From Podarcis vaucheri (Eukaryota), in the NCBI GenBank assembly GCA_965113315.1, contig OZ220372.1: a stretch of DNA of 64,000 nucleotides. One strand, given 5' to 3'. Of this stretch, positions 2,387 to 58,780 are shown piece by piece. How positions within the stretch are numbered: position 1 is the stretch's first letter; each line of letters begins with the position of its first letter. The position numbers and the translations under genes were made by a program. The notes beneath the pieces are model-generated. The model was not told where the DNA came from, ran no database searches, and worked only from the letters and a program-made list of their open reading frames with translations.

Positions 2387-2744
2387 TTGTATAAGAACCT
2401 TGGCTTCCTTTCTCTTCCTTTCTTAAAAAAAACAACAAAACTTTCTAGCCCTTAAGGCTGGAAAAAGTGTGGGAAGTGCCTACTAAAATCTCAGAAGCAT
2501 AGCAGGGAAGTCTGAACAAGGTTTCAAGAGAGGATCAGGCAAGGCACATGCTACACTTTGCCGCCTTCCAATGATTGGCAGGTGCTGCATAAATTATGGG
2601 AAAGTAGGAAACATGAATATTTGCCCCTATGCAATGTTTGCTCCTACCTCTCTGGGTGTAACATCTGTGGATGTCTTGGGGAAGGGGTTTTCAGTTCTTC
2701 CCGTGCTTGCAATATGGGCTGCACCTGGCTGCCTACAGGAAGTA

Positions 2745-3282
2745 CCGTATTTTTCGCTCTATAGGACACACCGGACCATAGGAGGGGGAGAACGGGGGGG
2801 GGGGATATCCCCGTCTCTGCTCAGCACCCCTTCAGTGAAGCAGTAGGAGAAACAGAGCCCCTTTCATTTCTCCTCCCGCTTTGCTGAAGGGGCGCTGCAC
2901 AGAGAGGGAAAACTGTGCATCGCCTCTCCAGCGAAGCGAAGCCTGGAGAGCAAGAGGGATCGGTGTGCACCGACCCCTCTTGCTCTCCAGGCTTCAGGCA
3001 GCTATCCGCAAGCCTTTGGAGCACAGCGGGAACTCCTGCTGTGCTCCGAAGGCTTGCAGATAGCTGCCTGAAGCCCCCGGAGCGCAGCCTTTGAGCCTTT
3101 GAGTGCAGCGGAGGCTTTGCGCAGCCATCCCCAAGCTAGAACAGCGAGACGGAGCGCTGCGCAGCGCTCCGTCTCCCTGTTCTGGCTTTGGGCTTAGCCT
3201 GCATTCACTCTATAGGACGCGCACACATTTCCCCTTAATTTTTGGAGGGGAAAAAGTGCATCCCATAGAGCGAAAAATACGG
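2745..3282. mobile_element. Non-autonomous Tc1/mariner (pogo/Tigger-like) DNA transposon, 538 bp
   Basis: TIRs CCGTATTTTTCGCTCTATAGGACACAC and (rc) CCGTATTTTTCGCTCTATGGGATGCAC, with TA duplications at 2743-2744 and 3283-3284. CpG-rich interior. Confidence 0.9.
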
Positions 3283-6255
3283 TAAGTATGAGGATTTCTA
3301 ATCATGTCACCTCACAGAGTATAAGCAGAACTAAGAAACAAACAAGAAAAACCAAGAAGCAGCCACAAACCCAGAAGAACTCTCAGGAGAGACATCACAG
3401 GGCAACATATGATGACATTCATGGAGGGCAACTGCTGGGCAAATGTTATAACTGTGATTCAATTTCTAGTATTCTCCCCATCCAAAGGGTGGAGACTTTG
3501 GACCTTGTGATTTATTGGACCTACTTCCAACCTAGGGATTGACACACAGAACCAGTTTAAGAGTATCCAGGACAAAGAAATGATGTGTGAATGCACCCGT
3601 AGAGAAATTTGCTGCAGCTGCTGCTCTGAGTAATCAATAGCAATTGAGAATCCTGCTATACAGATCAGAATGGGAGGAACTGTCCATTTTGATTCTCTCC
3701 GTTTCTCCCTTTTCCAGTCTTAAATTCAGTTCTCCACATTTCTCCAGCAACTTGTGAATAATATCCTCTTGATAATTCACCAGCACCAGCATTTCAGTGT
3801 GAATTAATCCTAATAAACACATTTTCATATGCAGTTTTGACTTCTGTACACATTTTGGCAATTTTCCCCAATATAATGCATTTTGTATGCAATTTTCACT
3901 CATGTATTCATTTTTTTATGCATGTACAGATGTACCCATATCAAGATCCATGCAAGTAGTGATTGGGCCAGGTACCATCTCAGTGGTAGAGCATTATGCA
4001 TGGACATGAGAGCGCACATAGTGCCCTTTCTTATGCCAGTCAACCACACCAATAGTGATTTGTTCCCTTTGGAATAACGGGTGGCAGAAGGCATGGTTGC
4101 AATGTTTGCCCCCCATGCATTAAACTTGTGTGGGCCTACTGGGACCCTTCCCCCCAGCATACATGTGACCACATAGCAAGTTTCTCAGCTGAATAATCCT
4201 GCCAAGTAATGATGAAAACTGTACCATACATTCAAATCCAGGGAATTGGGGAGGGGGCCTGAGAAAATCCTCTTCAGACATGGTTCATTGCTTCGTGGGG
4301 AAATGGTGATCAGCCTCCGACCTCCATTTCCTAAGTATTTGGGAAACACACAGCAACCCCAGAGAAATGGTTGGTTCAGCTTGTTTAGGAAAACATGGAC
4401 AATTTGTGATGCTTTGAAGGCATCATTCATAGTGAAGGCAAACGAAAGATGTGCCCATGGTTGAAAAAGCCAACCTCTACTTCAAAATGGCAACTAAATT
4501 GGCAGGTGAGGGTAGTGATGGATATCCACCTGCCTCATCGATCTGACTTAAAAAAAAAAAAGTACCTACTCTTGTTTATAGAATATACATCCACATCAGT
4601 TTAAATAATAACTGCAGACAGTAGTTTTTCTCTACTCATTCTCACATCCAACATTCACTTACCCGGAGCAACCAGCCCACACACATAATCCTCATTCTCT
4701 AGAAACACATATCTTTAAACTCATTCAAATCATTCTTACACACACACACACACCTTTCATTCCCCATTTCAAACACTGAAAAAGAGGGTGCCACAAAATG
4801 AGAATGGGCGTGTATGGCCTTTTCAAACGTGAAAGCTTTTTGTGTGATTGGGATTCTTCCTCCCCCTTGAACCTGTAGCAGACTAGCATAGCCAACAGGT
4901 ATTTTATGTGAGTGATAGAAATGTGGCTATTTCAGCAAAAAGTTGAAATAGAGAGCACATCTTTCCAATGCTTAGTTTTACAGACATGGTCCTATAAGAT
5001 CTGTGTTATAATTTTTTTGTATTTAAAAATAAACTTCTGGGGGAAGGAGTGTGTCATTTTCTTTCATCTCCTCTTTTAATTTGTTAAGAATAGAGGGTGT
5101 TTGTTTGTTTGTTTGTTTGTTCTTCCTTTAATAATCAGGAAGCATTTCTTCCTGGTCTTTGTTCATTGTGGCATAAGACTAATTCACACATTACACCAAA
5201 CAGAGGTGCAATCTGGGCAAGTGTTTGTGTGACAGAGTGTACGCCTGTTGATTTGCACAGCTCAGCTATTTGTTTACACAGGTTAACAAACTGCACACTC
5301 AGTGAACGTTACCTGTGAATAGCAGTATGGGTTTACAGCTCAACTATTTGTGCACACAAATAGTACACTTGCTAAATGCAATAGGCTAACAGCCCCTCTA
5401 CTGTGATCTAGATCAGAGAATAAGCAGTTGGAGAACTGTAGGCTAGAATCTGGCCTCAGGAGGAAGCCCTACCCAATTTTAATCAGGGTATAATGAAAAG
5501 TTGGCCGACAGCATCACTCCTAAGAAAGGGTGGGGCTTTCAAGGTGTAGATGCCATGTGCTTAATTATTCAGGTTTCTATTTAATTGATATTTATGTATT
5601 TAGATGTTCATGTTGAGTTGCTCTTTGGATTTTGGAAGCAATGCTCCAGCTACGCCTGAGGGCATGTGCAGTGTCTGTAACAGAGGCACCCCTGCTGAGA
5701 GACAGTGCATTCCGTCTGTGTTGCAATACACACTTCTGGCCATCAGATTGCTGCCTGAAGCAGGTCCCGCAGAAACTGGGCACTGGATTATAGAGATCTT
5801 CAGGGGAAGGGAGGGGATTGTGGGGAATTCTGCCTTGGTGAATGGAGTCTGAACTTGCTGATCTTTTCCCTCATCAATCTGTGAAAAGCTGAAGAGGGAG
5901 ACAATGTGAAATATATTTAAATAGCCTCTTTCCAACTACACACACCGCAACATTAATTTCAGAACCATGACAGATAGCTTCCCGTAGCTTCCTCCATATT
6001 TTGAAAGGGGAGGCGAAAGAGATGGCTTTCCATATCCCTACAAACATTTATAGAACAATTTAAAGATTCAGGTTATCATGTTTTGAGTCACACACAATAT
6101 CCATCCTCTCACACAACTTCCGGTGCTTCAGGCTTTTAAATCATTTCTACCAAACAACACACTTTGGCACTCGTCACCACATACAAGAAAAGACTCTGAT
6201 TCTTGGGCTTTGTGGTTTTTTGTTTTTTTTACCCTGATATTTTGTGGTAGGTTTC

Positions 6256-6365
6256 TTTATTTTTGAATATAAAGTGACAGAAATAATTTGCTGTTAGAAA
6301 AGAGAAAGAATCTTTGACTATTTACAGATTCTGTACATCACAAAGTTTTCTCATTTTGTTTTATT
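6256..6365 (-). terminator. Candidate distal polyadenylation signals (two AATAAA) with flanking UGUA motifs
   Basis: Plus-strand tttatt at 6256-6261 and 6360-6365; tatttaca (UGUAAAUA on minus) at 6319-6326; tgtaca at 6332-6337. Confidence 0.45.
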
Positions 6366-10819: not shown

Positions 10820-12240
10820 TGTATGAGACCGCACTGCAAATTACTATGAGCCATTGCTAAGCTGTCTTTTTCCTTATGCTGTTTTTATTCATTGACTGTC
10901 TTGTTGAGGATAACCAAAAAGAACAACGAAAGGAAAGATTGCAGGTAGGGAGACAAAGCTCTGCATGAGTGTGTTGGCAGTTTGACTGTGGGGGTAAAGA
11001 CAGCATGAACTAGAGAGTTTCAGCTGCAAGTTAGTAGAATTCAAGGCAGCTCAGAGGGTTGTGTAGGTCCACAGTTTTGTGCTCTGGGAATCTAATCTAG
11101 GGCTTAGTGGCTGTGCTACCTATATTATCACAGCCTGCTTGCTGTTTGTATGTTAAATAAGCAGTTTACCAAAGATACCCTAATTATCCCATGCTCTTTC
11201 TCCAAAGAAAACTAAATAGAGGGATGCTATCCCTTTGCTTCCCGCTGCTTGAGGAAGAGGGAACACTTAAGATTGGTCACAAAGAAGGAAATTACCCACC
11301 CACCCTGGAGGGAAACCGTGAGTTGGTGTGAGCCAAAAAATGAGAGCAGCAGAAATTACAGCAACTCCAAACAAGAGTCAGGAGGTGGCATATCAAGAGG
11401 TAAGAGCTTTACTGGATCGTCAGCTATAAGGAAGTCAAGACAGGCCCAGAGACCCAACAGAAGAGCTGCCATGTGGATAGCTAAGGAGTTCCCTATCAAT
11501 TCTGAATGTGTTGAAGGGTTAGTAGCTGAGAAACAACAGACTCTTGTCTGTCTTGGGTGTTTCCAGCAGTGATCCAAATGAAAAGCTAGGGGAGAGTCCT
11601 AAGAACTGAAAAAGAACTGGAGATCATGGTACAAAGGTAAAGTAGCTGAGGCCTGCAGTCAGGGGAAAGTGGTAGAGAATATGTAAAAAATGCAAGGGAA
11701 CATGCAAGGTGGCTTGGAGGATGACTGTCTGCAAGCTGTAGCCATGGATGAGGAGAAATCCCTTGCCGACTGTATTATAGCATGTGCAGCCTATGGAAGC
11801 TCAGGCCCTTACAGCTGTTGTACTCCAGGGTCACGATCCAAGAGAAGGAGTGATCCAGAAGCCCATGAATTATGAAGGCACTTCAGACCAGGAAGCCTAT
11901 CTGCCTAAGCTTGGGAAAAGGCCCAGTATAAGTGACTGGGATGGTGGAAAGAAAGGAGAATTACTAGCAGTCAGTCCGAGTGAAGTATCCTTGTTGGGCC
12001 CTCTGATAAAGACTTATTGGTTTGGACCAGGCATAAGTAAGGCACCCTGGGCCAGGAATGTCCCTGAGCAGTCATCAGTCCAGGAACAGAGCTTAAAGGA
12101 TTCATTTTCTTTAGATGAAAGAGGAGCAGGGTCATATGGTGGCTTCACAATAGCTCAAGTATACACAAGTATTCGTGGAAGCAAAGTAACTCCTGAAGCA
12201 GGCAGCAAAACCACTGATCCTATACTAGATTCCTAGAGAG
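10820..12240 (+). mobile_element. Possible decayed LTR retroelement (LTR plus start of internal region)
   Basis: Purine-rich block with a TG start at 10820, an AATAA-like signal near 11156 and a ggtggcatatca end near 11395, followed by broken ORFs (11249, 11690, 11784). No diagnostic gag/pol motif seen. Confidence 0.3.
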
Positions 12241-12799
12241 CTACTGTGTGGACCTTCACAATCCTCCAGACTTCTTACATTCCCTCTGAAATCTAATATA
12301 AAGTATATAACAGGCACCATTCACCAACAGGTTTTGTTGTGCAAGCCCCGTTGAAAAGAGTAGCAATGGAATCACATAGCTCCCATTGATGTCATACAGT
12401 TTGTGCAGATTTCCTGGCAGGTGGTGCTCCCAAAGTATGATCCAGTCATACTTAATCACTGAAATTTAAATGTGAGGCATTGAAAGATAAACTTAAATTT
12501 TCTCACTGAAATCAACTGGCCCTAAAAGTGATGGAACAGGGGCAGGATCGTGCCCATAGCCTACAGTCTCTGATTGCTTTTTGTATTATTTGTAAATACC
12601 CAATTTATTCATCAGCAAATACTATGTACAAGGCAAGATTATGCAAAACAATTTGCATAATGTATATAAATGATAGCATCTGTCAATTTACCAGTTAATG
12701 TAAACTCTTAACATAAACACATTTAAGGTTAATGTCTAGATAGTCAGTGAATCAAAGGAGAGGTCTTAATCTTCACACCTGTCTAGAAACCATTTAGAT

Positions 12800-12935
12800 C
12801 AGGCATAGGCAAACTCGGCCCTCCAGATGTTTTGGGAATACAACTCCTATCATCCCTAGCTAATAGGACCAGTGGTCAGGGATGATGGCAGTTGTAGTCC
12901 CAAAACATTTGGAGGGCCGATTTTGCCTATGCCTG
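12800..12935. mobile_element. Palindromic hAT MITE (136 bp) with perfect 8-bp TSD
   Basis: caggcataggcaaa...tttgcctatgcctg, nearly fully self-complementary. TSD atttagat at 12792-12799 and 12936-12943. Confidence 0.92.
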
Positions 12936-13644
12936 ATTTAGATAGTGTGCAAATCCATGATAAAACATGACACTCAGAAGTAGGTATCAATGGCGAGGTG
13001 TTTCAAGACTTACTTCAAAATGACCTGATATAGTCTTCACTCCAAGCTCCATGAGGTTTTAGTCTACATATGGAGCTGAGAGGGGAACCTCTGGCCCAGA
13101 AGCTGAATGTGACCCTTCAGATCTCTCTATACAGTTCTCAGGACTTTTCCAAGGTAATTTCCTTCTCCGCAGGCCTCACCCCTCACCACCTCTATAACAC
13201 ACCCTCCTTGAGATGGGCGGGGTATAAATTATAAATTATTATTATTATGAGCTTGGCCGGAATGTGTCCTTGCAGTGGCAGACTTTGGATTTTCAAATTT
13301 CAGTGGTGCCCTGTGCAACGACAAAATTCAGCACCCTCCGCTGAATTATTTCAAATGTATTTACAAATAAATTACTTGTAGTTTTCAAAATGGTCTCTGA
13401 CAAACAAACAAACAAAATCTGTTGAAGTGGCTAGAGTGCATGACTGTCCCAAATGCCCCTGGGGGAGTGATGGCATGTGGTGAGGTGACATTCCTCACAG
13501 GGACATGGTACAGAAAAAAAGATGGCTGCCTAAACGAGGGCAGCCATTTTCCTCTCATACAGTAGCCCTGTGAGGGACCTGCAGCCACATATAACATGCA
13601 GCAGATATTGCCTGTTAAACAAATGGGATTTTAAAAGAAAAGAA

Positions 13645-16600: not shown

Positions 16601-19572
16601 GCCTTGAAAATAAGTTTTGGGGTATAAGGAATTCAAACCTGCTATTATTTTTTGTGACTGGACAACATTAAGCTTGGCAAATCTATGTTTGATTAGAAAA
16701 CACATAAAATGCTTTTGGAAAACCAAATAATTTTAATTTTACCTTCTGGTCAGGTAATACAAGTCTCCTGCCAATCACCAAGCAATACAATGATATCAGG
16801 CCCACACAGATCAACAATCCAGAGAAAATCTGGGAACTCTATGTGCAGAACAGATTCCTCCAGAAACTGAGCCAAACCACAAGCCACAAGTCAAGACACA
16901 CATGAGATTGATTATATGATCAAGATACTGAGGGTGGAGAAAACTTTCTGGAACACATATTCAGGTAAGGGAAACAGGATGCAAAGCATAAGAAATGAAC
17001 AGACAATGCCATTACCTTCATGCCCTGCTTATAAATTTTGCAGAGGCATTTGGGAGGCCACTGCTGTAAACAGTGCTGGACCAGTTGGAGACAATCAATT
17101 TGTTCAAGGCCACACACCCAATACAAGGCAGAAGTGGGATTTGAGCCCTTAAGTACAATTTCTTTGACACTACATACTGCTGCATCACAACAGCAACTTT
17201 ACACAAGGCCAACCAGTTAACTTACTATACAGATCCCAACCCATATCGTTCCCCTTGAAGAGATCCACTCCCTAAAAGAATTTCACCTGCATTTCCATAT
17301 ATTTACCCCCTCTCCTTCCTCCCACCCAACCCCAAAGAAAATATCCTCTCCCTTTTACCCATCTCCATGGCAAAGTCAGGTAGACAAACGATCAGCTTCC
17401 TATCCCCTTAAATCTCTCAACTCTCTCTGACAGGGAGAAGAGGTGGTTGACGGGGAGCTCCTGGGGTAGGAAAATTACGGTACAATAATTTGGAGAAAGC
17501 AGTGGACCAATCAAGCAGCCAACCTCCAAGGAATGCCACCAATGAGGAGCCAGACTTCTCACATCACCCACTGGCCCCAAACCACAGGAAGCAGACATGC
17601 ACAACTGCCAGCAACCCACAGGGGCAGGCGGGGAGCAAGTTCTCTGAACAACATTTGCATTCCCTCAGGAAATTTCCCCTTGAGGTGGCAACATGATATG
17701 CTGTGCATTGGCCAAATCCCAGCCTATTATTTCCCCAAATTGTTGACAATTTTTGCCCAAAAGTGCCCCAAAATGGTGTACAGTATTCATGCACCCAGTT
17801 TGGCAGAAGCCATGGTTGTATACATATTATCGAGTGCCAGTCTGGGAAGCCACCCCATGGGATGTCCTACAAGTACCACAATTGCCTTCCCTAGTAAGAG
17901 ATGACCTTCACTTCAAGGTGCTTCATGTTTCAACAACACATGAACATTCATTACTGCCATTAACCCCACCCCACTCCCCACCATGCATTGCAACTCCCCT
18001 CCCTTCCACACAAACATTTTCCCCACAACCTCCCCTTTTCCCATCACCGCCCCCCATCAACAAAACTTCACGCCACAACTTCCGTTCTTGATCATTTTAT
18101 TTTGGTGACTTTCATGCTACATAAAAATTAGCTTTTCTATAAAAAAGTATTCACAATTTTCCCCCAAAATATTTCAAGGGTATTTTTTTAAAAATATTTG
18201 TAAGTTTTCTTTTTTCAAGGGGGTTACTGGTCATCCCATATCCTCCTGCTGCCATCATCTTTGTTCTCTTTACATTAAAAATAAATATATGAGATGACAA
18301 GATTCAACACAGGAGGGATTTATTGACTCTAACCAAAAGACTGGGAAAATCCAGGTTTTCCCGAGTGGCTGGAGATACCCAGAAGAACATGGCACAGAGT
18401 GCCAATGGAATTTCACTGGGGAGGAACATTTATTTCTCTCCTGATTTCTGAGTCGCCCTTTTCTGTGAATGGGTGTGATTTCATAATGCAGAATAGCTGG
18501 AACGATTGGAGGAAGCTCCAAGAATTATGGACAAAGGTATCTGGGCAAATGTGAATTATTTTAAAACTTGAAACACAATCTCCCATCTCTCATACTAGAA
18601 TTTCATAGAAATTTCTCAACTCTACCAGATTTAAATCTAAAACCTGAAAAAAGACTATCCATACTATAACCAACAGATCAACTAACGGACTTCTAACCAG
18701 AAGTCTTGACTGTCAATTCTCTTTGACAGACATATTTTGGAACTGTTTATGGCACTTTGGAGGTTGTTGATTGTGATAAATGCATTGTTTGATCCAAAGT
18801 TTACAATTACCCACCTAAACTGGAGTGAATTTGTTTCCAATGTGGGTCTTATTCACCCAAATGCCATTTGCATGCATCTGGTTCCATACATGGGAGATTA
18901 AGGAATAATATATTGTTTTCATCTGTCTCTTCATCTTGTTCCGTATGAATTCCATACTCCCTTTAAGTGACTACAGATGTTCATGGACCAACTGGTAACT
19001 TACCAGGTACATATTTATTGCTTGGTACGCCAGTCAACTGAAACATCCTGCCAAGTGATGAATTTTATTACTACAGTTTCTAAATATTTCTGAGCAGATT
19101 AAGAAGTGTGGTAAATGTCTCATCACTTGACAGTCTGTTTCAGATGACCAACATTCCAAGTGTTGGAATGTACCGGTATATGATGTCCTCAGTAACTTGC
19201 ATAGGCTTCAGAAAACTGTCTTCCCCCTCTTCCCCAGTAATGTTAGCTCCAGAAAACACTGGAAGAAAGACCAATGGAGGTAAAGAGAAGGGCAAGACTG
19301 AGCTGTAATATATGTTACAATGCTTTCAAAGAGAATGTGGCTCTGATTTACACAAGTCACTATGTGAATACCTATATGCATAGCTCCTGCTTCCTCCAAT
19401 CCTTTCAACTATCACTCCATTCCCTATTATGAGATGACACCCACCCACATAAAAAGGTGACTAAGAAATACTGTATATAAGTAAATAGCACAATATAATA
19501 CGCAGGACCGTCAGCAATCCATGTTTGATTAACAGTACTCTATATAATCAATCATAGTGATTCTATGTATCT

Positions 19573-19573
<1 letters not shown>

Positions 19574-19604
<31 letters not shown>

Positions 19605-19629
19605 CATACAAACACACACACACACACAC
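19574..19629. repeat. (ATCA)n followed by (AC)n microsatellites
   Basis: Seen directly. Confidence 0.9.
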
Positions 19630-22600
19630 TGTACGGACGCACTAGCTGAAGTAAATGTACAGAAATTAGATTCTGAATGAGACAACCTGGTGGATTTAGC
19701 CATTCATTATGGATGAGGATAGGGAAGTTGTGAAAACCCATAAAAGAGAAAAGATGAAGAAGAGCATTGGGTCTTTGAACAGCAGTAAGCCTAGAATCAT
19801 ACAGTAATGTGGTTCATGCTGACGTTCCTTGCTGTTTTGGGAAATGTTGCTTGAAATTGTTATTTCTGTCAATTGTAAATTGTGTTCTCTCTCTATAATA
19901 CAGACAAAAGAAGGAAATCTACATTTTTAGTTACATTCATTTTCAGAATCTCTTTTGTTTCAGATGAATCATTCTAACTTGGTCTCACCATTCACTCCAC
20001 ATACACAAAACATTCATTTTAGTCAGTTTAAATTGTCAATTAAGCTCCATTTCAGTCTGGAGATTTTTCTTTTCTTTTACTAGTGGCCAAATGTTGGCAA
20101 AGTGCTTTTTCCCCACTAGGAAAGTTTTGTTAGAAATTTCCCAGTTAGTTTTTAAAAGGGAGGGAGCTTTCCAGATGATCAGTTTGTTAAAGCACATTCA
20201 CAGTCCAGTTCTACACCAAGTTTGACATGCTTAATCCCACAAAATTCAGTGGCTTTAGGGGCCTAACTACACATTACATTAATGATGTGATTAGCAATCA
20301 CATTGTGTGTTGTTAAAAATTAAATATCAAGTGCAGCGGAAACAACTGTTATCAGGATCCTTCCTGCTGTTGGCACAGTCTCCATAAAATGCCCCCCCCC
20401 AACACAGAAATTAACATTAGGGAGGGAGAATCCCCACTAATGCCAATGGGAGCTTGGTATGTAATGCAAGTAGCTGTGCTGGGCAGGGAGGGGAATTTCA
20501 TGCAAATTGCATCTGAGTAGAGCTTAACCCTTCTCATCCTGTGCACCCTGATCTTATTGACACTCACATCCCTGCACCTGTATTATTTTTCAAAAAATAG
20601 CATGCAATGTGATTGTAAATCATACTGTTAATATTATATGTAGTTAGGCTCCTGGATGCACAGAGTGCTTCACAGAACTGGACTGTAAGTGTGTTGTCAT
20701 TACTCATTTGTGATATGGGATCTACATTTCTAGCAGTGTCTCTATTGCAGCATAGGCAATGACTGCAGAGTACCTGCAATACCACCAGTGAGAAATGTGC
20801 TCACTCACCACCACAGCTCGTGACATTCTTGCATTTACAATTTTCAACTATTTATTTTATAGAATGCCCTTGTTTACTGTGCACTGTATCAGCTGTCTAC
20901 TGCAGTGATGGTGGAGCCATTCTGTACTAGTTCTAAACAAAATTTCAGTAAGCAAGGCAAACACATGTTGCCAATGAGGATGTTTTACGAGATTTCCCTT
21001 AAAGACATCTTTGCTGGCCGCACCCTTTTCAGCTGTGCTTTTTGAAAGCTGTGAACAACAAAACTGCTGTCTCCCACAATATGGTGACTCCCTCATCAGT
21101 GATTTTGGAAGAAGATGCTTCTGGAATCAGGGCTAGCATCGCTATATAACTAGAATAGGAGCCAGGGTTTCTGCCCCCTAATCATTGGAAAAGCCCCCAC
21201 CCCACCCCAATGAGAGAGCATGAGACAGAACAGCACAAAAGACCAGAGAGGTATATTGCAAAGCTCTGCTCTCTAACAATGACATCTCAGAACTGTCCTA
21301 CCATCAAACACATTACAAACACAGATTACACAGCCTCCCATCTGAACAACACAGACCGGAAACTATCTTAACGCTGCATTGCAGGCTACGCCTCCTTTAC
21401 CCCCCACCCAAGCTCCCCCAACTTACCTAAAAGTATGCATACAGCATGCACACACATTTCACAGTGGTTTGTGTGTGCCTGCCTGCCTGTTTGAATAAAC
21501 ACAGTAATTGATTCAGGCTTCCAAAGCCAATGATTTATACTAGGAACTAAATATTTGACTGTGAAATGTTATGGACAATAAGGAGACTTTGCTCCTGTCC
21601 TTCCCATGCCTCTTATACCTCCTTTATGCTTTCCCTTCCCCAACTCTCTTCTGTATCTCTGGGCTAAGCTGAATCTTAATACCGGAGACCTATGATTGAA
21701 CCTCTCAAGTGTTTCTTGCTTAGGCTTAAAGCAGCCATGGGAAGGAGGAATTTGATCATGGCTGCAGGAGGGTGGAGGTTCAACCCTTTCCTGCTGCTGC
21801 CTTCCAAATATGTATATCCCCACCGAAAGCTTCTTTTTAGGCATGAAGGGGGGAAATCGGTCCCTGCAGTGCTTCATGCTGAAGATTGATCTCCACCCAT
21901 ACAGCTCTCCTATCAATCCACAAACTGGCTTTGGAAAATGAGAGGATTGCAGTAAATGCACCTTCCCACTTTCCCCCCATGACCCTGCCAGAGTCTTGCA
22001 ACAAGACAGGATGTCAAGTACTGGCTGCAATATGCCTTTTAGCAATTGCACTATTCAGCAAAGAAGCACATTAGCCTAAATCCAAATCAGTTATCTGCTA
22101 GCTAGCAAGACTTAGCTTATGGCTCAAAGTCTAAATTTCATCCTGTTAAAGAGTAAAAGTGGCCATGATAATAGTGCAAATTGAACCAACAGAGTATGAA
22201 CAATTAATTAAAGGGTGTTGATGGGCTTGCCATAGTCTCAGGAGTCACCCAAAGGGCATTCCAAGCAATGTTTCCTCTGAGATGTATGAGAGGTTACTCA
22301 GTGATGTATGCACCACAGCAGTTGGTAGCAAGGCAGAAAGAAGCTTGGCACCAAGTGAAAGACGCCTGGCACCCAGCTGTGAATAAGGAGGACATGGCAG
22401 AAAAGCAAGGCGCTGTGCTGCAGACAGTGCAGCCCTTGGCTGCAAAGCAAAAGAGCCTGGCACACTAACAAGGATGATGATGCAGTCGATAGCAGAAACA
22501 GAAGCAGCACAGAGGGGAAATGTTGCACATAAGAGCAATAGGCAGTCATCAGTGACAATCGGAGGCATCTGTGACATACTGTCCACATACTGAATAACAC

Positions 22601-24394
22601 ATTGCCCTACATCTAACAGCACCATCCACTAAGAACATAAGGGAGTTGGTGGGTTGTGGGAATAACAGAATCCAAGTTGCAGAGGGGCAAATTCTCCCAC
22701 TTCTATGGAATGATGTTTGGCTAGCAAGGAATCCTTCAAATCGGTTCTTAATCTCTTCTGCCTATCATGAATTGCACAGAAAAATAGGCCACACATTAGT
22801 CCTTCCTGTCTACAAATCTAGCTATATGTACACTGTAAAGCTACTCTCAGTCCACTTTATTCAGGTGGCAAATGTGCACCACCTTTGAGCTATAAAGTCA
22901 ACCTTTCAGAGGGAGCCAAAGTCCTTTGCCACACCCACTGAGCCCCCAACCAAGAGTAGTTTTATACTTGGCAAAATAATAACTCATTCCACAAGGCTTT
23001 ACTTTTGATCTCTGCTTACAGCAAATCACAAAAACTAACACCTGCCTTTAAGATAAAACTATATATACTCTCAGCTTCCCTCTCACAAACCACAATGCAA
23101 GTGGAGCTTACAACATAGTAGAGAGAAACATCAGCATCCTCTCTGGCTTTAGTCATGGCTCTTCATGATATTCTACACATTCTTTATCCAGAACAGAACT
23201 CCCCATGCCCAGATCTTACACAGATGCTCATATGGTTAGATGGAAGGGTCACAGAGTCAATAAAAGGGCATGGCTTGTTCCACAACCCTGTATATATTCT
23301 GGGACGTGATCTCTATAAAGGCAGCTGCCCCTGCCTTTGTTGTAGAACAGTTAGGTCACACAAGAGTAGTTATATGGTCCAGAGGGAGGGGTGCAAGATT
23401 CCCCCTGCCCCTAGGCAGCACCCTGCAATTGGGGCTTGTAGAAAGGGCGAATTGAACTTGAGCTAGGAAAATTGCAAATCATTGTTTCAGATGCTGCTAC
23501 TAAAACAAACAGATTGGATTGACCTGCAAACTGCTACATAAATAAAAGGCACACAATAAGCATTACATAACATTATGGTAAAAATCAGTACAAATAAAGC
23601 TAGTTAACTGGCTAGAGAACTGGTCAACCAATAGATTTCAATTACCAGTTTTCTATGGGAAGATATTATTAAGCAAAGTTATTTCCAGATCAGTAAGAAT
23701 AATACAAAGGCACAATGCAAATCCAGATGCTTTTAACTGAAAAGGCAAATTGTTGGGCTGAAAGGCTACCCTGAACCCCACTTTACTTTAAAAGATGGTC
23801 AGGCTGGCATGCTCCCATATCCCCACCCCAATACACAGTTCAGAAAGCCAAACAAAACATTAATATCCTTATTCTGCATGTGACAGAAGGGTGAGGGCAG
23901 CTCCTTGGGTAACCTGCAGCTGCTGAAGAAAACGCCAACTACCACGAGCCCTTTCTTTCTATTTTGTTTTCTCAGGGAAAACATTCTAAGGCCATTATTT
24001 TCCACACCACTATTGGTAGCCTAAAACACATGAACTTGATGCTAAGAACATTTGAAAATGACCAAAATAAAAGGAGCAGGTGAGGATTATGTAACGCAGG
24101 AACATCCCTTAATGCAGTGAAGGGGGGGTGAGGGGGCACCTCTCTACAAACAATGGGCGGAATCCAGCACAAGGAGTGCTCAATGGAGCTTGTGCGAGAG
24201 AATATTCTGGTAGGTTGTACTCGGCATAAACCGTACCTCCCAAATGGAAACCAAACCCTCAGACACCGAGCCTTTGGAAATAAAAGACGGTCTGTTTCCT
24301 TCACCAGGGATAAGGAGATATGAGTCAGGCTGGCTCAGTGAAGAGGGGAGTGAACATTGGCCACTTTGTGGGAGGAGCTCATTATTCTGGCATG

Positions 24395-24570
24395 GTTCTG
24401 CCTCCACTGTTGAAGGCAGTAGGTGTCTGAATACCAACCACTGGGAATCAAGGGTGGGGAGAGGGCTGCTGTGGTCAAGTCCTGCTTTCAGGCTTCCCAT
24501 AGGCATCCCATTGGCCCCTGTGAGATGCTGGACTAGCTGGGCCACTGGCCTGATCCAGCAGGCTCGCCTT
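24395..24570 (+). mobile_element. CR1-family 3' UTR fragment
   Basis: ggcttcccataggcatc...gctggactagctgggccactggcctgatccagcaggctc tail. A related decayed copy lies at ~52250-52465. Confidence 0.65.
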
Positions 24571-27500
24571 GTGTTTTTGGATAACAAGATCAGGGTGTCA
24601 AAAGGGCTGATGTTAGACAACAAGGGCAGTAGCAAGAAGGATCAGGGGAGGGTAAGCGTACTAGATATACTTTTGATTTTATTTTGCACTTTTACAAAAG
24701 GGTGTTGAGAAAATTAGAGAGGACATAACGATGAGCAACCAACCATATAAAGACTTATGAACAAGATTTCTTGTAATAAGAAGGCAATTTTAAGGTAATA
24801 CAATGTTAGATGGTTGAAATGAAGGCTGATAAAGTGCATTTGATGGGATTTATGAGAACCCTCATGAAAGAAAGCATGGTGAAAAGGCTTTGTGTCCATG
24901 CCTCAATTGTCAAATCATGCCAACTGTTTATTAGAGTCAAAAGAACTTTTCCAAGGAGATCACAGATGGTACACTGCTCTGCCACTACCTGACTAGCTGA
25001 AGAGCAATACCAGGTTATTTCAGAAATGTACCTATTAGCATGTGGGTGGCTGGGTAACAACATCTGTCAATTATTTCTATTTTAATCATATTAAATAATT
25101 AAAATCCTGCCCTTCCTTCAAATAGTGCAGGGTGGCATATCTAGGATAATCCCAATTTCATCTCTCCAAGAGTAGGCCATCTAGCAAGCTTCATGGCTGA
25201 GTAAGGATGTGAAGTACAAATCTAACACTCAACTCATTCTACCACACTAGCTTTACTACCCACAATGAAAGGGTTCTGCTTGGAAAAGAGATGCCATCTT
25301 TAGATGCCCAAAATCACACATGCACAGCAAGAGAGCAGGAGGGGGTGAGGTGACAGCCAAAGAAGCAGAGTAGTCTGAACAAAAAAATGAGGTACAAAAC
25401 CTCAGAAGAGATCTGAACACACTTCAGTAAGGTGGGGTTATGGTCAGATTTGAACATGGGGAGTGAGGCTCTGGCATGGGTTTTACGTAGAAGATCCAGA
25501 ATAACAACCTGCTGTGTAGGAGGGATGTTAGAAAATGGCTTTTCCTTGCAGAAGAAGTGGGTGAAGAAGACCCTTGAACAATGTCAGAGAAAGACACACA
25601 TATCAAAATGGTGGATGTTACTAACATCCCAGGAGAAGGAAGGGAGAGAAACATGGGACAGTTTTCAGAGGAGAGAGAGGAAAAAAAATAAAGACAGACA
25701 ATCTAAGGAAAGGGGTAGCCTGGTGTTTCAAACATATAATCTCAAACATGTAATCTCTAGCTATCAATACATGTTCTAATTAAGGAAACTATTAACACCC
25801 TTTTCCTCCCCACCCACCACCAGCCCCCAAACCTCCCCCAACATGAGTCCCTTTCTTAGCACACACATAGAACATCCAGATAAACTTCCCAAACTGGCAA
25901 AAGCAACCACTGAAACAACTTCAAACACCACAGACCAAGGAAAACCACAACTCATAAGTCAATTCCCCCTTCCCCATGCCTTTGCTTAATATGGAAATAC
26001 TGTACATATAAAAAAATTACCCTCTTCCCCCAACCTGAATATAGCTGCTGTAATTAGCTCCTGTACATATGTACACTTATATTTACATATAACCGCAATC
26101 AAATAAGCGGATGATATATATGGCACAACATGAATACATAACATTAAAAACAATGTCAGGAAATGTTGCATTGTTTCTGCTTTGATAAAATGCTTTATTG
26201 TGACTAAAAAGAGTCAAAAATGTTTGCTGAAATATATTGATTTTGATGTTTGAGATGTGTCCATACATACTCAAGCTTTTTGCTGAAGTTATGTGAGACC
26301 TACATATATATTATTCAGCTTTTTAGTATGTGGTATGTGTGTGTGTACACACAAACACCAGTGTTTATGAAAAAAATGCAGTTAACTCAGTATGGAATAG
26401 GTCGGACCTTCCAAGAACTTAACTGTGGTATTCATTACAACCACTTGTGATAGGTTAAATAAATTAAATTATGAATAACTGATAACACAGATTTTATCTT
26501 GAGCCCAGTTCAGATGATTGAATTGGCATGATGGGCTTGCTGACCAAATGGATCCAGCTCAGTCTGACATGTGGTCAAATTGTTGCATACCCCACAGCTT
26601 CGCAGATGACATGACATGTGAGCTGGGTATGGTATTAAGCTTTACCATGGGCAGACCAGAGCCTGGATCCACTCACTCCACCAACTCATCACGGAGGAGG
26701 GCAATTTAATTTGAAGCTTATGGGGGTGCCCTTTGTCTATGCCCCTCCTTGGCTCACTGGTCTATCACCAAGCTGGTCTGGTTGTGTGAAGTGATCTTCA
26801 ATCTTCATAGCACTGCTTTGTTGTTTTTAACTGGACTTTGCTAACAGAGAATATTCTAATTTTGTCAAGATGTACTCTACACTAATTCACATTATTGTCA
26901 GCAATAAAGGGAATTTGGTAACATTCAGAGGCTGGAAAGGGCGGGCCTTCAAAGCATTTAAAATAAAAGTTTTTAAAATGTGGTGGTTTAGTTTGAAGTT
27001 TGTCTGGATGGGTGCCAGAAATGAAAACCCATCCATAATGAAAATGATGCTATATGTCTGGATCTATAACTGGCGGTTATAACCCTAACCAACTTTTCCA
27101 GTGGTGAGGGTGTAGGGAATATTAAGAACAGAATTATGGCTTGGAAGCCTATTTGGCTACAAACTGGAAATAAGCCCTTGGGGGACAAAGCTAGTGTCCC
27201 ACTAATTACTTTCTTCATATTCGAGCAGCGTCCAGAAGTAGAGTGGACGTTTTCCACTTGGACAGACCTGGTATGTTCAGTATGTAATTGTAGGGAAGCA
27301 CTTATGGAAGAGGATGCAAAATGCAAGCTTGAGGGGTTGAGGTCCTCTTCTATTGTTGCCAGGAACTTCAGGGCCCGATCTTTCAGGTAGCTTCATGCGC
27401 ATATATCTGATGGATGTGATGGAATGAAACCAACACAAGCCCCATTTGGGAGCAGGTGGGCAATATGGAGTACAATCATGAATATGGGCTGCCAGCTCTT

Positions 27501-28576
27501 TTGGACAAGAAGGGATACGGCCATGCTTCATCTAAGCAAACTCATGAGGCATACATGTTTGTTCTGACAACATCCTGGAACAAAATAGTTCCTCTGTGCA
27601 ACTAGCCTCTGATTATCCTAACTATGACTGTATTTAGGAATGATGTAGATTTTTATTAAAGGAATTTGAAGAAGAATTCCCAGTGGCAGGAAGTGAGTTG
27701 TAAGAAACTGCCGGAATACCTGTGCCCAAATTGGGATTGTGTTGGATTTTGGCAAGTATGAGAGATACTAGTTGATTTACATGTGCAAGGGAGTATGGGG
27801 TGGGGATGGAGAGGGACAGTATACTTTTAAAAACCTGTAGATTAGTGCTGATGCAGGGACAACCCATTTTCTTTGATATGTTTGTGTCATGCATAATACC
27901 CCACTCACCAAATTTATGGAGCACCACACATTATGGCAGGATATAACATAACATAACATGGTGTATTGCTACATTGGCAGACATACCACCTCCATTAAAG
28001 AATGCCAGAATAAGTGGTCCGGCAGCATGCCATACTAATGTCTAACAGCATGGGAAGTCTGCCATTCCTCCACCCCACCCCATCTTTTCCTCCTTTATAC
28101 CATAACATTTATTACATACATATTGCCATGGCTCCAGAAGTATGAGCATTTAGAAAGTATTTCAATATATCCTCCCAAAAGACATTAATGGCAAGATATG
28201 CCAGACTGAAAAAAAACCATACCAGTTACATTATGTATGTTCAGGTACAGAACCACTCACCCATGCAAAACAAACACCCTTAGTTCATGGTGGGGGGGGG
28301 GAATCAATGTTATGAAATGACAGAAATATTAGGAACATACCCCATTTTTCTAAGAGGAAGAAGAAACTGGGTTTCTGAGCTGATAAACATTCACTTTTGT
28401 TGGCCTCTCGTACAAAGTCTCATGTATTTTTTGGCAAGTTAAGCAACCAACATCACAGCCTCCATTCTAGCATAAACAGCACCTGCTGCTAAAATTTCCT
28501 GTTATGTTCACTCGATTATTTTTAGTGAAATAACACTCAGAATTTTAAATTACAAAATTGTAATCAGTGTTCCAAG

Positions 28577-28578
<2 letters not shown>

Positions 28579-28620
<42 letters not shown>
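28579..28620. repeat. (GT)n microsatellite in the putative 3' UTR
   Basis: Seen directly. Confidence 0.95.
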
Positions 28621-28621
<1 letters not shown>

Positions 28622-31600
28622 CCAACCAACCCTTTCCCTCTTGGTCAAATTTCAAGGGAAAGAAAAATGTATGTTTCAAATGAAAGAGAAGGGGAAAGAA
28701 AGCCAGAGGCTCATTTCATGTGTCAAGGCAATACACAAGACACCTGCAAATGTATTGTTGTTGAAAGTCCTCCAACATTTCCTGTTATCCTTAAGCAGAC
28801 AATTTTCACACTCTGTGCACACAAATTAAAATTTGTAAAGCACTTTAATATTATCAAACCTAAACACTATAAATGTAAACATGTCATTCAACGTTTAAAT
28901 TGAGCTAGGGTCAGAGAAAAAGGTTATAAGAAAATGTGAACCATAGTGAACCGTCATCCAAAACAAAGATCTGGAATCATTCTGAGAGTTCAGTTAGCAT
29001 CTTTTTGGTTTGTTTTTCAGTTTAATTTTCTCCGAAGTACCATTCTCAACTGCATTTGGTTTCAGCTGAGGGATGGGAATACTGACATAGCTGCCAAAGG
29101 CAGGCTTAATCAGTAGGATCAAACCCAGCTGCTTAATAAACCTTAAGAAGTACTAGTAAACTGAGATTTCCCAGTCCCAAGGTTTCCAAGCCAACATTAA
29201 CTTTGGAGAAGTCCCTGTAGTGTTGGGTGATGATCTAAACTGAACATTCAAAATGATGGTTTGCTTCATCACCAAGGGAAAACAGCACAATGCCCAGGAC
29301 CCAGGTTCCAGAGAAGGGTTATGGTATGGAGTTTAGAATCAAGCAAGGGAGATATAGTGTGCTTCCATTAGAACATGAAAGCCCTGCTAGCAAGGCTAGA
29401 GGTGATCTAATATATTTTCGAACCATGAAGAAAAAAGGTGGCAGGTGTGTAGATAGAGGTATTCAATGCATGCAGTTTTCTCTCCTTCTCCCCCATTTTT
29501 AACAGCCTGGGCCCACATCAAACAACTTCCAGACACATCGCCTGAAAGTTGCAGGGGTGGGAGGACAACCTAAAATCCCTCTTCTCTCCAAACCTGAATA
29601 TTCACAAGAAGAGAAGCACTTGTTTGTACAAAATGTAATAGAAAAGAAAACCATATTTACAAATGAAATGAATGCCTTCTCAACTGCTCTTGTCAGAGGG
29701 TTCACTCCATGTTCTGCAGACTGCTAAGCAAGCATTACTTTCTTTACAGGAGAAAGAAGAGAGGAACAAAAAGGCGTTCTACTCCTCCAACCATAGAGAG
29801 GGCATCCCTCCTTCCATAACTTGCTTAGTAAATCCAGAGGAGGTGGGGGAATCCGATTTCACAAAATGTTCAGGCCCTTCCTCCTGGCCTCTGCCTACCA
29901 AAAAAACAAGGCCTTCAGTTGGCTTAAATGCAAGAAAGGTATTAAGATAGAGCCAAGTAGGGTATGGTTGGAAGGATACACGAGAAGAGAATTAGCTGCA
30001 GGAAATGTGGCTCGAAAAAGAATGGCTGCTTCCAAAGCTCAGGGCCTGTGCCTGTCCATGCGTTCAGTTCTACTGCAATGTGCCCAAGATAGCCGAAGAG
30101 CACTTTTCACAGTCCTTTCCAGTTAGGAAAGCAGAACAACAGACCCATGAAAAAGTGAGGTGCTTTGCCACATTTTTGGGAAGCAACAATGGACCTGTTG
30201 CCCTTACCTGAGGGTTCCTGCTGTAAACGAAACAATATCGCTTCTAACAAGTGTCTCATTTTAACTTGCATTTACAGTTATTCCTCCTTGGTAGCCAAAC
30301 TGCTGTTATCAGTACTATATGCACTGAGGACAGGGCCAGAACAACTCTCAAGATGCTAAGTGATACCGCTTTTGCACTTTTGAACCTGCCGGTCCCCTTC
30401 ACAACAATATTCCCCACATCTTTCCAACTCTGCTCTCCAGTCGTCACCACAGCATCTGTACGATCTGATGATTCATCTCCTCATGCCCTGTGGAAGACAA
30501 GCTGTGTATTTCCACAACACTATAATTATCAAATATAAGAATATATTCAATAAATACACATATACACATGTCTGAGTTGTGCTGGCCCTATTCCCACCAC
30601 CACCACCGCCGCCTTCTTCCACTTTCTACTCAGAGGAAATACAACATCAGCAGAGAAAGCCTTTCCATTATTCATCTTGCTCGTGTTGCATGATATGCTA
30701 GAGGAGGGAGCAATGGCTGAGCCTTCTCCCTGCCAAATTAAATTCATCAGAACAACTGTGGAGCTTGAGTTGCCAGCCCTGCTCATCTTTTCATTCACTG
30801 ACCTTTATGTTCCCTTGCATTGGAAAGGTTTGCTCTGCTGGGTTTGTCTACTAAATATCGTAGCGATAAGAAACTCATGTTGTTACGATGGTTCATGTCA
30901 ATTAATTTTCACATTTAAGCTTGTGCATAAACCAACCCATATTTGATATTTCACCATTTCAAAATTAACAAGTTGTTCATGAGTAGCACAAAACCTGCAA
31001 CCAAACCTCCCCTGGGACCCCAACATTTGAATTTTCCCAAGACTTTTGCTGAAAGTTTCACTGGCATTCGCTTTTATCATTCCAATTCGTCTTTCAGAAG
31101 TGACCTCACTGGGTTACTGTTGACTGGACCACTGGCTAGATCTGCATACATATCAAACATCCCCTCCCCCTGGTAAATATACCAAGATTTCAATACATTT
31201 TTATCTTCAGTATATATATATATGTATATGTATATATGCAACTCCATATTTCAGCCTTTAACCCACAGAGTCTTCACAAAAGAACTGAATGATTTTTTTG
31301 CATGTAATCAACATAAAATGCATTAAGTTGATCCCACACTATTCACGTCCCATCAATTTTGCTTAAAAGTACATATGTAAGAAGACCTGTATCTTCTTCA
31401 TGCCCATTCTATCTCTTCCATTCTCCGCCTCAGGCCACCTTCTCGTATCTGTACTAACCATCACAGTTTGGCGCCGAGAAAACCCCAAACTCTGCGGCTA
31501 TTGCTCCCACTCGTATGCTGGCCTCTCCTCAACCATGCCTTTGCCTTTCCCAACTGTGAAAACACAAGCTAAGCTACTAAGCTCTGACATGTGATGGCCA

Positions 31601-31831
31601 GGAATGGAACTGTGAGTGGAGAAATGAAAAGAGATCATCGGGGATGGGGGATCTGGGGAAAGAAAGAGGTGGCACTTCGCATCAGCGCTGCCTAAGCAGA
31701 ACTCCAATACTCCACAAAGAAAAAAAGAGTAGCAGAAGAGTAGCAAATGGGAACTAGGTCTGAACCCACCACCTGCCCCTCCCACACGTTGCATTTCCAG
31801 CACCATCCCCTCCCATGCTTTTCCCCATCAC

Positions 31832-33730
31832 TCAGACATCAGACTCAATACTGGAAAGTTTCTCATAAACNNNNNNNNNNNNNNNNNNNNNNNNNNNNNN
31901 NNNNNNNNNNNNNNNNNNNNNNNNNNNNNNNNNNNNNNNNNNNNNNNNNNNNNNNNNNNNNNNNNNNNNNNNNNNNNNNNNNNNNNNNNNNNNNNNNNNN
32001 NNNNNNNNNNNNNNNNNNNNNNNNNNGAAGTCTGGCCTGGCCTTGGGCCCTCCTGCCACCACAGGCTGCCTGAAGAAATAGGATTTGCTGCCGTGGAGCA
32101 AGCACTGGTCATCCCCAAAAGTGGGGATGAAAGGGTTTTGAGTGACCCGGTCGGGGTAGAGCGACTTGCTGAGCATATAACCACCACTAATGCCAGGATT
32201 GTTGTGGTGGTGGTGGCTGGTGGCGGGCACTGAGGACTTGTTGTTGGCAAAAGTGGACTCGCTGGCTGGCATCTCAAACATGTGGGCATAGGGGCTTCCC
32301 TCCAAAAAGCGGCCCTTGTCCTTCAGGCTGACGCTGCGAGGGGCCAGGGCGGCGTCTTCCTTCTGCAGATCCACAAAGGTGTCGTAGGAGTGCTGCCGGC
32401 GTAGCTTGTTGCGATTCTTCTTCTGCACCTTGGAGGCAGAGTTGGAAGGGCTCTGAGGATACTTGGTAGTGGAGGTGCTGGTTGCCACGGGCACAGGAGC
32501 AGATGGCTGATCCAGCTCTTGGAGGGAGTTGTCCTCACTGATGTCGTAGAGGTTTCCGGCCTTCTTGCAGGCTTCACACCGGATGCATGGCTGGCGGGTG
32601 GAATTCTGCCCCACCACGGTCGGAGTGTAGTTATGCAGCTTCGATGGGCAACTGCGGCAATAGTTAGCGCCAGGGCGTTCCTCCCAATCGAGATTGGTGA
32701 GGTTTTTCTCCCATGGCGCTGGTACCCCACTCACAACACTGTGCTTGTGCTCATTGTTTGCTCCAAACTCCCCCGACCCGTGTTTGTGGTGGGTCCTGTT
32801 AGTACATGTCCCTGCTCCCCCTATAGTGTCACGCTTGAAGTCATCTCCCCGCTCTTTATAAATATCCGTCAGATCCACATGTTCCCAGTGCGGTGAGTTC
32901 TCCTTAGCCCGGAACTGGTCCAAATAGAAATCCCGTAGCCCTTCCTTGTCCCTAAAGTAGCGCTTGTGGTCAGGGGAACGGGGACGCCGGCGATAGGCCA
33001 GTTCAATCTCATCAAACTCTCTCCGTGACTTGGCCGAGGCTGGCCGCTTCTTTAGACTATCTTTATACTGCTGTTTTCGCCGCTTTGCAGCGTTGCCCTC
33101 AATGTTGCCATAAGTCACGGTATGAGTCGATATGTCCGAGACATCTGAACGGATCAAATCGTCGTGTGCCCCTCCACCGCTGTATCGGTCACTCTTGAAA
33201 GACAACTTGCCATAAAGGTCACCTAACTGGCCATGTTTGGCCGGCGGCAAACCGATATCTAATGGCTTCTTACTGAGAGATCGAGGCTGTGCGGAGAAGG
33301 GGGGATTATCACAGTCATATAGTCCATCGATGGAGCTGGCGCTCCCTATGCTATGGGGGCGATGGTGGTGATGATAATGGTCTTGGTAAACATTGCTTTC
33401 TTTCAGCTGCAGATTACCAAAGGTCCTTTCCACCTCACTAATATAATCACTGAAGAGGTTTTCCTCGCAGGGGGGGTTGTTATAAGACTTGCAGTCGGAG
33501 TGAGTGAAGCTACGGCGGTGCTCAGAGATATCGTAGACAGAGGATTCGCGACGGATAAAATCCAGGGCACTTTGTGGTGAGCCATTGACACCTGAAAGGT
33601 TTGCCATGTTCTTTGCTGTTCGGAGCAGGCGCAAAATGTTGGAATGGGTATTGTTCATGGTGGCAGTGGGGGAGTTCATGGAAGAATGGCGGTCCTCGAT
33701 AGCCACTCCATGGATGCAGCTGTAAATACC
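31832..33730 (-). CDS. GRIN2B: GRIN2B last coding exon (1899 nt including stop), intracellular C-terminal domain GIYSCIHG...[11 protein letters not shown]
   Basis: Lies in ORF 31832..33736(-). Acceptor ttgcag|GGT at 33730 and TGA at 31834-31832. Contains the RRQHSYD CaMKII site, the YEKL AP-2 motif and the ESDV PDZ ligand. 156 N at 31871-32026 keep the frame. Confidence 0.98.
31871..32026. other. Run of 156 N inside the GRIN2B last exon (52 codons, frame preserved)
   Basis: Seen directly, between codons for ARPDF and VYEKL. Confidence 1.
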
Positions 33731-34743
33731 CTGCAATGGGGGAAAGCAAAGGGAGGTTAGCAGAGGAGCCTTCCAGCAGGGGAGCGGCAGAGCTTGGAGG
33801 ACTGAGACAAAAAACCTTGTCCTTTGCTAAATAGGATCCTCAGTGGGATATCGTTGGGAGATGAGACAATCTAGACACTCTCATAATGGTTCTTCCACTT
33901 TTAATCTTCCTCCACCTTTGCCCCTCTATCCCTTGCCCTTTCATTATTAAACTGAAATAAATCTAAAAATTTATTCAGACCTTTATTGAAGTGGGGGTTT
34001 TTAAAGACATGGTTGCAGATGTTTCTTACAGATCAGATGCTCAGCAGTGCTGTGGTCAGGAGTACCGTCTTAAGGGTTACACCTTATGCACTAGCTGCAG
34101 GATTTGATCACTGTTTTCCAATGCTCTGGTAAGCGCTTCAGACAGTTTGTAATCATGCACATGAGATTATTCTGAATCTCCAAATACTGCAGATAGGCCA
34201 TTAGACAAGCCTTTGATCCACAGCACCTGTTTACATTTAGTTTCTAGGCGTGATTCAAGGTGATACTTCTTACTTAGAATACGCTAAAAGAGTTGCAAAT
34301 ATTCTTTAGTTTGCAGATCTTGGAAACAGGTTTGAGTAAACATATAACCAGTCTGATATTTGAGACTGTCAGGACATGACTTTTAGAGGTACAACATATT
34401 GGTTCACTTGGCACAGTTTCCTGACCCTCTGCATAGCCTCTAGCCATTGTTATTCATCTTGATTACAGACTCTGACCCACAATTGCTGTATGAGTTCCAG
34501 CTCTTTCTCCCTAGTCCTGATAAAGAATTGTATAAATTAGGAAGTTATACAAAATAGATTTTTCCAACCAGAATTATGCTGTCTTAATACTTTGTCTGAG
34601 TTTGACTTTTCTGGTCAAAGAATTCCACATTTTAAAAGCATCCTAAAAATGGATCAGAGTTTTACAATCAAGAGCCTAGTCTGTTAAGCAAAGAAAGTAA
34701 TGATGAAAAAATCCACATTTTAACAATGAACATTTACATTGTT

Positions 34744-55144: not shown

Positions 55145-55288
55145 TGGCAGTTAGCTCAGTTGGTTAGAGTGTGGTGCTGATAATGCCAAGGTTACGGGTT
55201 AGATTCCCATACAAGCCACATGCACGGCAGAGGATTTGCCTTGATGACCCTTGAGGTACCCTTCCAACTCTACAGTTCTATGATTCTA
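55145..55288 (+). mobile_element. tRNA(Ile)-like-headed SINE with CR1 tail
   Basis: gttagctcagttggttagagtgtggtgctgataatgccaaggtt head and cccttccaactctacagttctatgattcta tail. Confidence 0.8.

Positions 55289-58477: not shown

Positions 58478-58780
<303 letters not shown>

Follow-up and report, generated by a model that had tools for sequence, protein, structure and literature searches.

Long-range duplexes in 3' UTRs form an already known class of RNA structure. In the available parts of the reports drawn on here, Staufen-bound long-range duplexes are linked to dendritic transport (PMC8657808), and A:U-rich long-range 3' UTR duplexes bound by STAU1 are linked to compaction and slower decay, with STAU1 preferring symmetric stems (PMC10164587). 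The long double-stranded RNAs found with dsRNAscan (Andrews and Bass, PMC11838218) are imperfect duplexes with long loops, also in neuronal genes; their conserved neuronal subset is defined by phastCons of at least 0.9 in both arms across vertebrates, and the SON duplex of the same report combines vertebrate-wide conservation, covariation and editing. The PCCR catalogue records long-range complementarity among conserved intronic regions of human genes and links it to editing and 3'-end processing. Outside the RNA field, terminal inverted arms around approximately 1 kb of non-coding DNA with an internal inverted repeat are a property of MITEs and other non-autonomous DNA transposons.

We analyzed a window of 64,000 nucleotides from the lizard Podarcis vaucheri (contig OZ220372.1, assembly GCA_965113315.1) that contains an imperfect inverted repeat, S1, likely in the 3' UTR of GRIN2B. 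Like the Rgs4 duplex bound by Stau2 (PMC8657808) and the duplexes of the STAU1 hiCLIP atlas (PMC10164587), insofar as the available parts of these reports describe them, S1 has long-range arms, likely in the 3' UTR of a neuronal, dendritically localized mRNA, is A:U-rich and, together with its nested hairpin, holds predicted uninterrupted helices of 13-15 bp, where Staufen-bound duplexes have stems of at least 12 bp with few bulges. Its span of 825 nt is longer than that of the Rgs4 duplex (167 nt) and than the mean for long-range STAU1 duplexes (252 nt), and its fold carries a large asymmetric bulge mid-duplex, unlike the symmetric stems that STAU1 favors. S1 shares the long imperfect duplex, the long loop and the neuronal gene with the dsRNAscan class, and its comparison extends to close lizards whereas that of the SON duplex spans the vertebrates. 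With the PCCRs it shares long-range complementarity, but it likely lies in a 3' UTR and not in an intron.

We put the probability at about one half (0.5) that S1 is an old repeat forming a GRIN2B 3' UTR long-range duplex, probably weakly selected, and a likely Staufen-type docking and compaction site. As modeled, the old imperfect inverted repeat, carried in the very long GRIN2B 3' UTR, would form a long-range RNA duplex of 84 bp enclosing a nested hairpin (S2), and this duplex would be kept by weak selection. It would dock Staufen-type double-stranded-RNA-binding proteins and compact the UTR, and so contribute to dendritic transport or to stability of the mRNA; a certain amount of ADAR editing would then accompany it as a by-product. 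The Staufen binding and the transport or stability role are proposed by analogy with the systems above.

The Grin2b 3' UTR is needed for synaptic mRNA localization, and deletion of all of it in mouse impairs synaptic mRNA localization, translation and learning; the available part of that report names no element (PMC12933152). If kept across species, the S1 duplex would be a small, testable candidate element for this localization function; should it turn out to be neutral or restricted to closely related lizards, it would be an ordinary long hairpin like many others. No description of the S1 structure was found in the literature searched, although dsRNAscan Table S7 and the Stau2 hiCLIP duplex lists may include it. 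Grin2b/GRIN2B is absent from one supplement each of PMC8657808 (Stau2 hiCLIP) and PMC11838218. We regard S1 itself as new, a probably weakly selected example of the known class.

Position of S1 in the GRIN2B transcription unit

The minus strand of the window encodes a GRIN2B-type protein (Pfam NMDAR2_C, E 1e-174, and Lig_chan), in agreement with the original prediction, made from the letters of the window, which had treated this strand as the GRIN2B mRNA strand. The GRIN2B-type last coding exon (31832-33826, minus strand, with a 156-nt N gap inside) ends with a stop codon at 31832-31834, and S1 is located 12.4-13.4 kb beyond this stop.

According to the available parts of the published reports, the Grin2b 3' UTR is 19 kb long in mouse and the GRIN2B 3' UTR 25 kb in human (PMC12933152), and the GRIN2B 3' UTR extends over more than 22 kb without splice junctions (PMC8257547). 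The distal end of the Grin2b 3' UTR was formerly called lincRNA AK043754 (PMC3638137), and its conservation reaches as far as lizard and chicken (PMC2926783). A likely orthologue of this amniote-conserved end (mouse AK043754) lies at 6256-6365 on the minus strand, with AAUAAA at 6360 and at 6256. A mouse/chicken primer (PMC2926783, supplement 2) matches 6317-6344 in 25 of 28 letters (0 of 100 shuffles); no match was obtained with its forward partner. Since the conserved distal end maps to approximately 6.3 kb, the lizard UTR could be approximately 25.6 kb long, near the human length. From these positions S1 likely sits midway along a GRIN2B 3' UTR of about 25 kb. An AAUAAA at 18096, considered as the only 3' end of the gene, was dropped once the distal end had been mapped.

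RNA coverage was drawn from 24 runs, none recorded as RNA; six were guessed to be RNA, and four of these were compared as contigs. Single contigs of X15 (18084-19560) and X17 (18109-19560) cross both S1 arms, X18 covers the S1 region in four pieces and X19 covers 18104-19359. The region is therefore represented in contigs of four probable RNA runs, which speaks against the objection, raised with the original prediction, that it might not be transcribed. Contigs cannot show strand and none of these joins the coding exon, so we infer that the RNA containing S1 is GRIN2B mRNA. Two raw RNA runs (X23 and X21) have 0 reads at the locus and are uninformative for editing, strand and ends.

Further inverted structures were noted elsewhere in the window. 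A 1.2-kb element in the distal half of the UTR (11054-12266) has 68-nt inverted ends (11054-11121/12200-12266) and two internal ORFs without a Pfam match, and is likely a transposon relic. A 31-nt inverted pair (57738-57768/59006-59036) surrounds a GRIN2B channel-domain exon at approximately 58475-58780 (E 0.28); it could be a circularization aid or due to chance.

Geometry and predicted fold of S1

In the orientation of the mRNA (minus strand), self-BLAST, alignment and fold place the 5' arm of S1 at 19367-19469 and the 3' arm at 18444-18541 (the right and left arms on the plus strand, respectively), enclosing 825 nt (18542-19366). Self-BLAST of the whole window aligned 18444-18540 with 19368-19469 over 105 columns at 71% identity (E 1e-6). 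The best inverted score, 56, was reached in 0 of 300 dinucleotide shuffles of 18000-19560 (maximum 33) and in 0 of 100 shuffles of 18085-31830 (maximum 38). S1 is a real inverted repeat, beyond chance. A global alignment gave 76 Watson-Crick columns out of 106, with 11 gap columns; of 95 aligned positions, 19 are mismatched between the arms (8 G-U, 4 A-C and 7 others on the minus strand), for a likeness of only about 80%. The perfect 13-bp core helix (18504-18516 with 19389-19401) is evident in sequence and fold, and the fold contains a second uninterrupted 13-bp helix (18464-18476 with 19437-19449), 2 G-U pairs included. The arm coordinates, core and spacer were as originally described, and the inward pairing of 18520-18541 with 19367-19388 matches the sequence.

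The two-strand fold of S1 contains 84 pairs (48 A-U, 27 G-C and 9 G-U), with an energy of -96.4 kcal/mol on the minus strand versus -87.3 kcal/mol on the plus strand. Folding of 3.1 kb of the minus strand, a longer stretch than the fold proposed with the original prediction, robustly predicts the long duplex on the GRIN2B mRNA strand, with 83 arm-to-arm pairs of S1 retained together with 37 pairs of S2 and 86 of a neighboring stem, S3. The z-score of the minus-strand fold is -10.9 (25 shuffles), and that of the plus strand is nearly equal at -10.3.

The nested S2 hairpin (arms 19021-19061/19120-19160, minus strand) has approximately 37 bp and a 58-nt loop, holds a 15-bp helix and folds with z = -9.6 on the minus strand and -6.2 on the plus strand. 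A further 13-bp helix (19191-19203/19349-19361, minus strand) is predicted, less certainly, inside the S1 loop; position 19191 differs in all four relatives, which breaks the end pair of this helix. Six bases of the window at 19170-19175, by which a short helix below S2 gains in length, are missing from all five other organisms and are therefore a recent insertion. S3 is a long imperfect stem adjoining S1 (20193-20336/20572-20693, found by self-BLAST, 86 pairs predicted on the minus strand); it is more stable on the plus strand, and its G-U:A-C ratio leans 5:9. Three of the five strongest spaced imperfect repeats of the window fall within 2.3 kb here. Neither S2 nor S3 figured in the original prediction.

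Under a re-implemented dsRNAscan-like scoring with G-U counted as a match, S1 scores 115 on the minus strand and 100 on the plus strand, above the threshold of 75 for arms within 10 kb. The S1 block ranks first of 80 tiled blocks in minus-strand duplex score (119); 19 of the 80 score at least 75 on the minus strand, so this bar is low. At least four further imperfect inverted repeats of S1-like strength are present in the window, one of them intronic. The intronic repeat (61017-61097/61593-61668) has a score of 112, nearly that of S1, and a G-U ratio of 6:2; its fold on the GRIN2B strand is favored by 17 kcal/mol.

At the gathering score, the sole Rfam match in the whole window was a tRNA-like stretch (55146-55218), probably the head of a tRNA-derived SINE, with none at S1. 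Six sub-threshold matches were obtained in 17900-20800, the best at 27 bits against a cut-off of 195; a miRNA or other Rfam family at S1 was rejected, as none reaches threshold. There is no ORF of at least 100 aa in 18444-19469, and six ORFs of the non-coding region have no Pfam match.

The original prediction had drawn attention to a 9:4 excess of G-U wobbles over A-C mismatches on the mRNA strand. The fold contains 9 G-U pairs and 4 A-C 1x1 mismatches, so this count stands (8:4 in the global alignment). As evidence of selection it fared less well: p=0.13 for 9:4 and 0.19 for 8:4 in the same binomial test, and G-U accounts for 8 of the 19 mismatches where the local substitution spectrum predicts 34% (p=0.30). 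In 25.5% of 400 neutral-decay simulations the energy was at least as minus-favored as in S1. With boundaries picked afterwards, S2 alone gives 5:0 (p=0.03) and S1 and S2 together 13:4 (p=0.025); S3 leans the opposite way, and its inclusion gives 18:13 (p=0.24). Among 12 distinct non-palindrome or control pairs, 5 were stabler on the minus strand and 7 on the plus strand. The G-U bias was rejected as proof of selection on S1, because neutral decay yields comparable asymmetry.

Origin of S1 and its conservation in relatives

The principal alternative, which we regard as less likely, is that S1 is a passive passenger of the 3' UTR that may pair but is not under selection. It would then be what decay has left of the terminal inverted repeats of a non-autonomous DNA transposon, or an inverted duplication that arose by chance. 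The inverted ends of approximately 100 nt, the length of about 1 kb, the nested inner repeat and the lack of a long ORF all fit such a relic, and the spectrum of mismatches, like the asymmetry in energy, is what neutral decay would give. The presence in the window of the four or more comparable repeats, one intronic, also fits. A third, weakly matching copy of an S2 arm lies at approximately 4130-4225, outside the UTR (nhmmer E 0.0023), which by sequence likeness points to a putative repeat origin for the S2 part.

As for S1 itself, the original prediction had named multicopy arms as an argument for a transposon, and one whole-genome contig set (X4) contains no extra copy of either arm at 80% likeness or above; its five matching pieces comprise three from the area of the locus and two short unrelated ones, chance matches of 33 and 38 nt (18539-18571 and 19089-19126). 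An nhmmer arm profile detected no other copy in the window (best other match E 0.53); as a positive control, the copy search returned 7 further matches for a MITE at 12789. This control is a palindromic MITE-like repeat (12789-12946) with degraded copies at about 37.5, 40.9, 49.1 and 53.4 kb. The arms of S1, S2, S3 and the other repeats show no kinship except each with its own partner. No direct repeat of 4-10 nt flanks S1, a duplication that age would erase. No empty site was found in the relatives: S1 is present in organisms B, C, D and E, and the sequence of organism F covers the left arm and loop only, all of these organisms being within about 5% of the window. S1 has the terminal inverted repeats of a MITE. 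Unlike MITEs, it lacks dispersed copies (in the search at 80% or above) and an empty site, its location being shared by all five other organisms, and no target-site duplication of at least 4 nt was found.

The lack of copies at 80% or above, of an arm match in the window and of a 4-10-nt duplication makes a young transposon family unlikely. Because the arms are themselves only about 80% alike, an equally old family could fall below the 80% threshold. Organism D lies at a distance of 3.2%, roughly a sixth of the divergence between the arms (19/95), and the repeat therefore long predates that split. S1 likely originated as a local inverted duplication or as a very old, low-copy DNA-transposon relic. 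Elsewhere in the window, 2743-3284 contains nested near-perfect palindromes (2811-2908, 2938-2995, 2990-3075 and 3129-3192) with inverted ends, and looks like a foldback-type mobile element.

Conservation of the arms bears on whether the old repeat is kept as a duplex. For organism D, substitutions were taken over 18425-19490 (30, or 31 in the table of pieces): there are 2 over the 201 nt of the S1 arms, 3 over the 82 nt of the S2 arms and 25 over the remaining 783 unpaired positions (p=0.06 for S1 in a Fisher test), and the enclosed region (18542-19366) outside S2 diverges by approximately 3.2%. Both arms are kept in organism D, contrary to the possibility, raised at the outset, that only one is conserved. 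For indels the arms of organism D show no deficit (1 in 201 positions versus 6 in 783), as expected of an unselected relic. The 5' arm of organism D has one substitution (19439, pair lost) and one deletion (19465); read by hand, this deletion could be absorbed by the S1 outer helix, and the organism D change at 18542 would extend S1 inward by one C-G pair. For the other relatives, 40 of 92 substitutions are listed; they include every change of organism C as far as 19282, and organism C has 5 others beyond that point. Depending on these 5, the arm-versus-loop p ranges from 0.014 to 0.33 (0.33 if all are in the right arm).

Among the listed changes at paired sites of S1 and S2, 4 of 6 keep pairing on the mRNA strand versus 32% expected (p=0.09): 18461, common to organisms C, D, E and F, and 19120 (both A-U to G-U), 19137 (C-G to U-G) and 19153 (U-G to C-G). 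All 3 paired-site changes seen in S2 are of this kind. The other two listed changes break helices, at 19439 and, in the 3' arm of S1 in organism C, at 18523 (pair lost); 7.4 such changes were expected (P=0.023), and the corresponding numbers are 1 versus 5.1 for organism D alone (P=0.036) and 2 versus 4.7 for S1 alone (P=0.15, not significant). This deficit of helix-breaking changes argues against a passive relic. Compensatory, two-sided changes, which the original prediction had looked to, are absent from the listed changes of the relatives in S1 and S2. With P of about 0.02-0.04 over the listed changes, the data are suggestive, not decisive, of selection on pairing, and the lower arm rates could instead reflect selection on the primary sequence. 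Two pattern scans of metagenome contigs for deep orthologues gave 0 matches, which is no test of vertebrate conservation.

Internal 3'-end formation, editing and allelic variation

A candidate internal poly(A) signal, AAUAAA at 18096-18101 on the minus strand, is positioned 343 nt past the base of S1 and is followed by a GU-rich and then a G-rich tract. Its downstream GU and G scores are the highest among 17 minus-strand hexamers between 5 and 32 kb, and an upstream UGUA is present at the candidate site (18030-18140, minus strand). The contigs of four probable RNA runs, from three studies, all stop at 18084-18138 with no loose ends; the DNA contig of X4 runs approximately 1.67 kb beyond 18425, past the candidate poly(A) point. 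These contig ends hint weakly at an internal poly(A) site, which, if real, would add an isoform switch. A more far-reaching proposal, that lizards nearly halve the 25-kb amniote GRIN2B UTR at such a site and that a selected cluster of nested duplexes upstream both sets the choice and recruits transport proteins, is in our estimate unlikely; if true, the cluster would be a defined cis-element for localization by one of the longest neuronal 3' UTRs.

Slightly less likely still is that S1 has been kept specifically as an ADAR substrate, with A-to-I editing tuning the GRIN2B 3' UTR. The stems contain four A-C mismatches and several UAG/AAG contexts, and the dsRNAscan-like score of 115 is well over 75. 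ADAR disfavors 3' C or 5' G contexts, and two of the four A-C adenosines are in such contexts; the G-U bias is also not significant. A T>C change at 18461 on the plus strand (A>G on the mRNA) is present in all four probable RNA runs and not in the DNA run; the contigs compared here come from other species. This position is one of 15 changes common to the four relatives, only 4 of which are T>C, and a lineage substitution therefore explains it. Conserved double-stranded RNAs are rarely edited, according to the available part of the dsRNAscan report (PMC11838218).

Least probable of all is that the nested structure governs 3'-end choice by hiding or looping out AAUAAA signals and so favoring 18096, for a 13.7-kb instead of a 25.6-kb UTR: five minus-strand AAUAAA are found in 18096-19069, including the 3' foot of S1 (18429), the 3' foot of S2 (19014) and the S2 loop (19064), and the contigs of the four probable RNA runs end near 18096, but S1 covers no hexamer, a low-complexity C-rich tract comes next at the contig ends, and mouse brain has a single long band in the available part of the report (PMC3638137).

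The left arm of S1 also appears to vary within species. From its contig ends, organism E appears to have two further allelic variants in the left arm of S1, uncounted in the tests above. In run X18, two parallel 112-nt contigs cover 18461-18572, whereas the flanking contigs of 357 and 1051 nt are unbroken. We rejected editing as the cause of this split, since the contigs first branch at a G of the plus strand (C in the mRNA). The split implies a cluster of three or more linked allelic variants in 52 nt (18491, 18512-18521 and 18542), and the left arm holds two of these.
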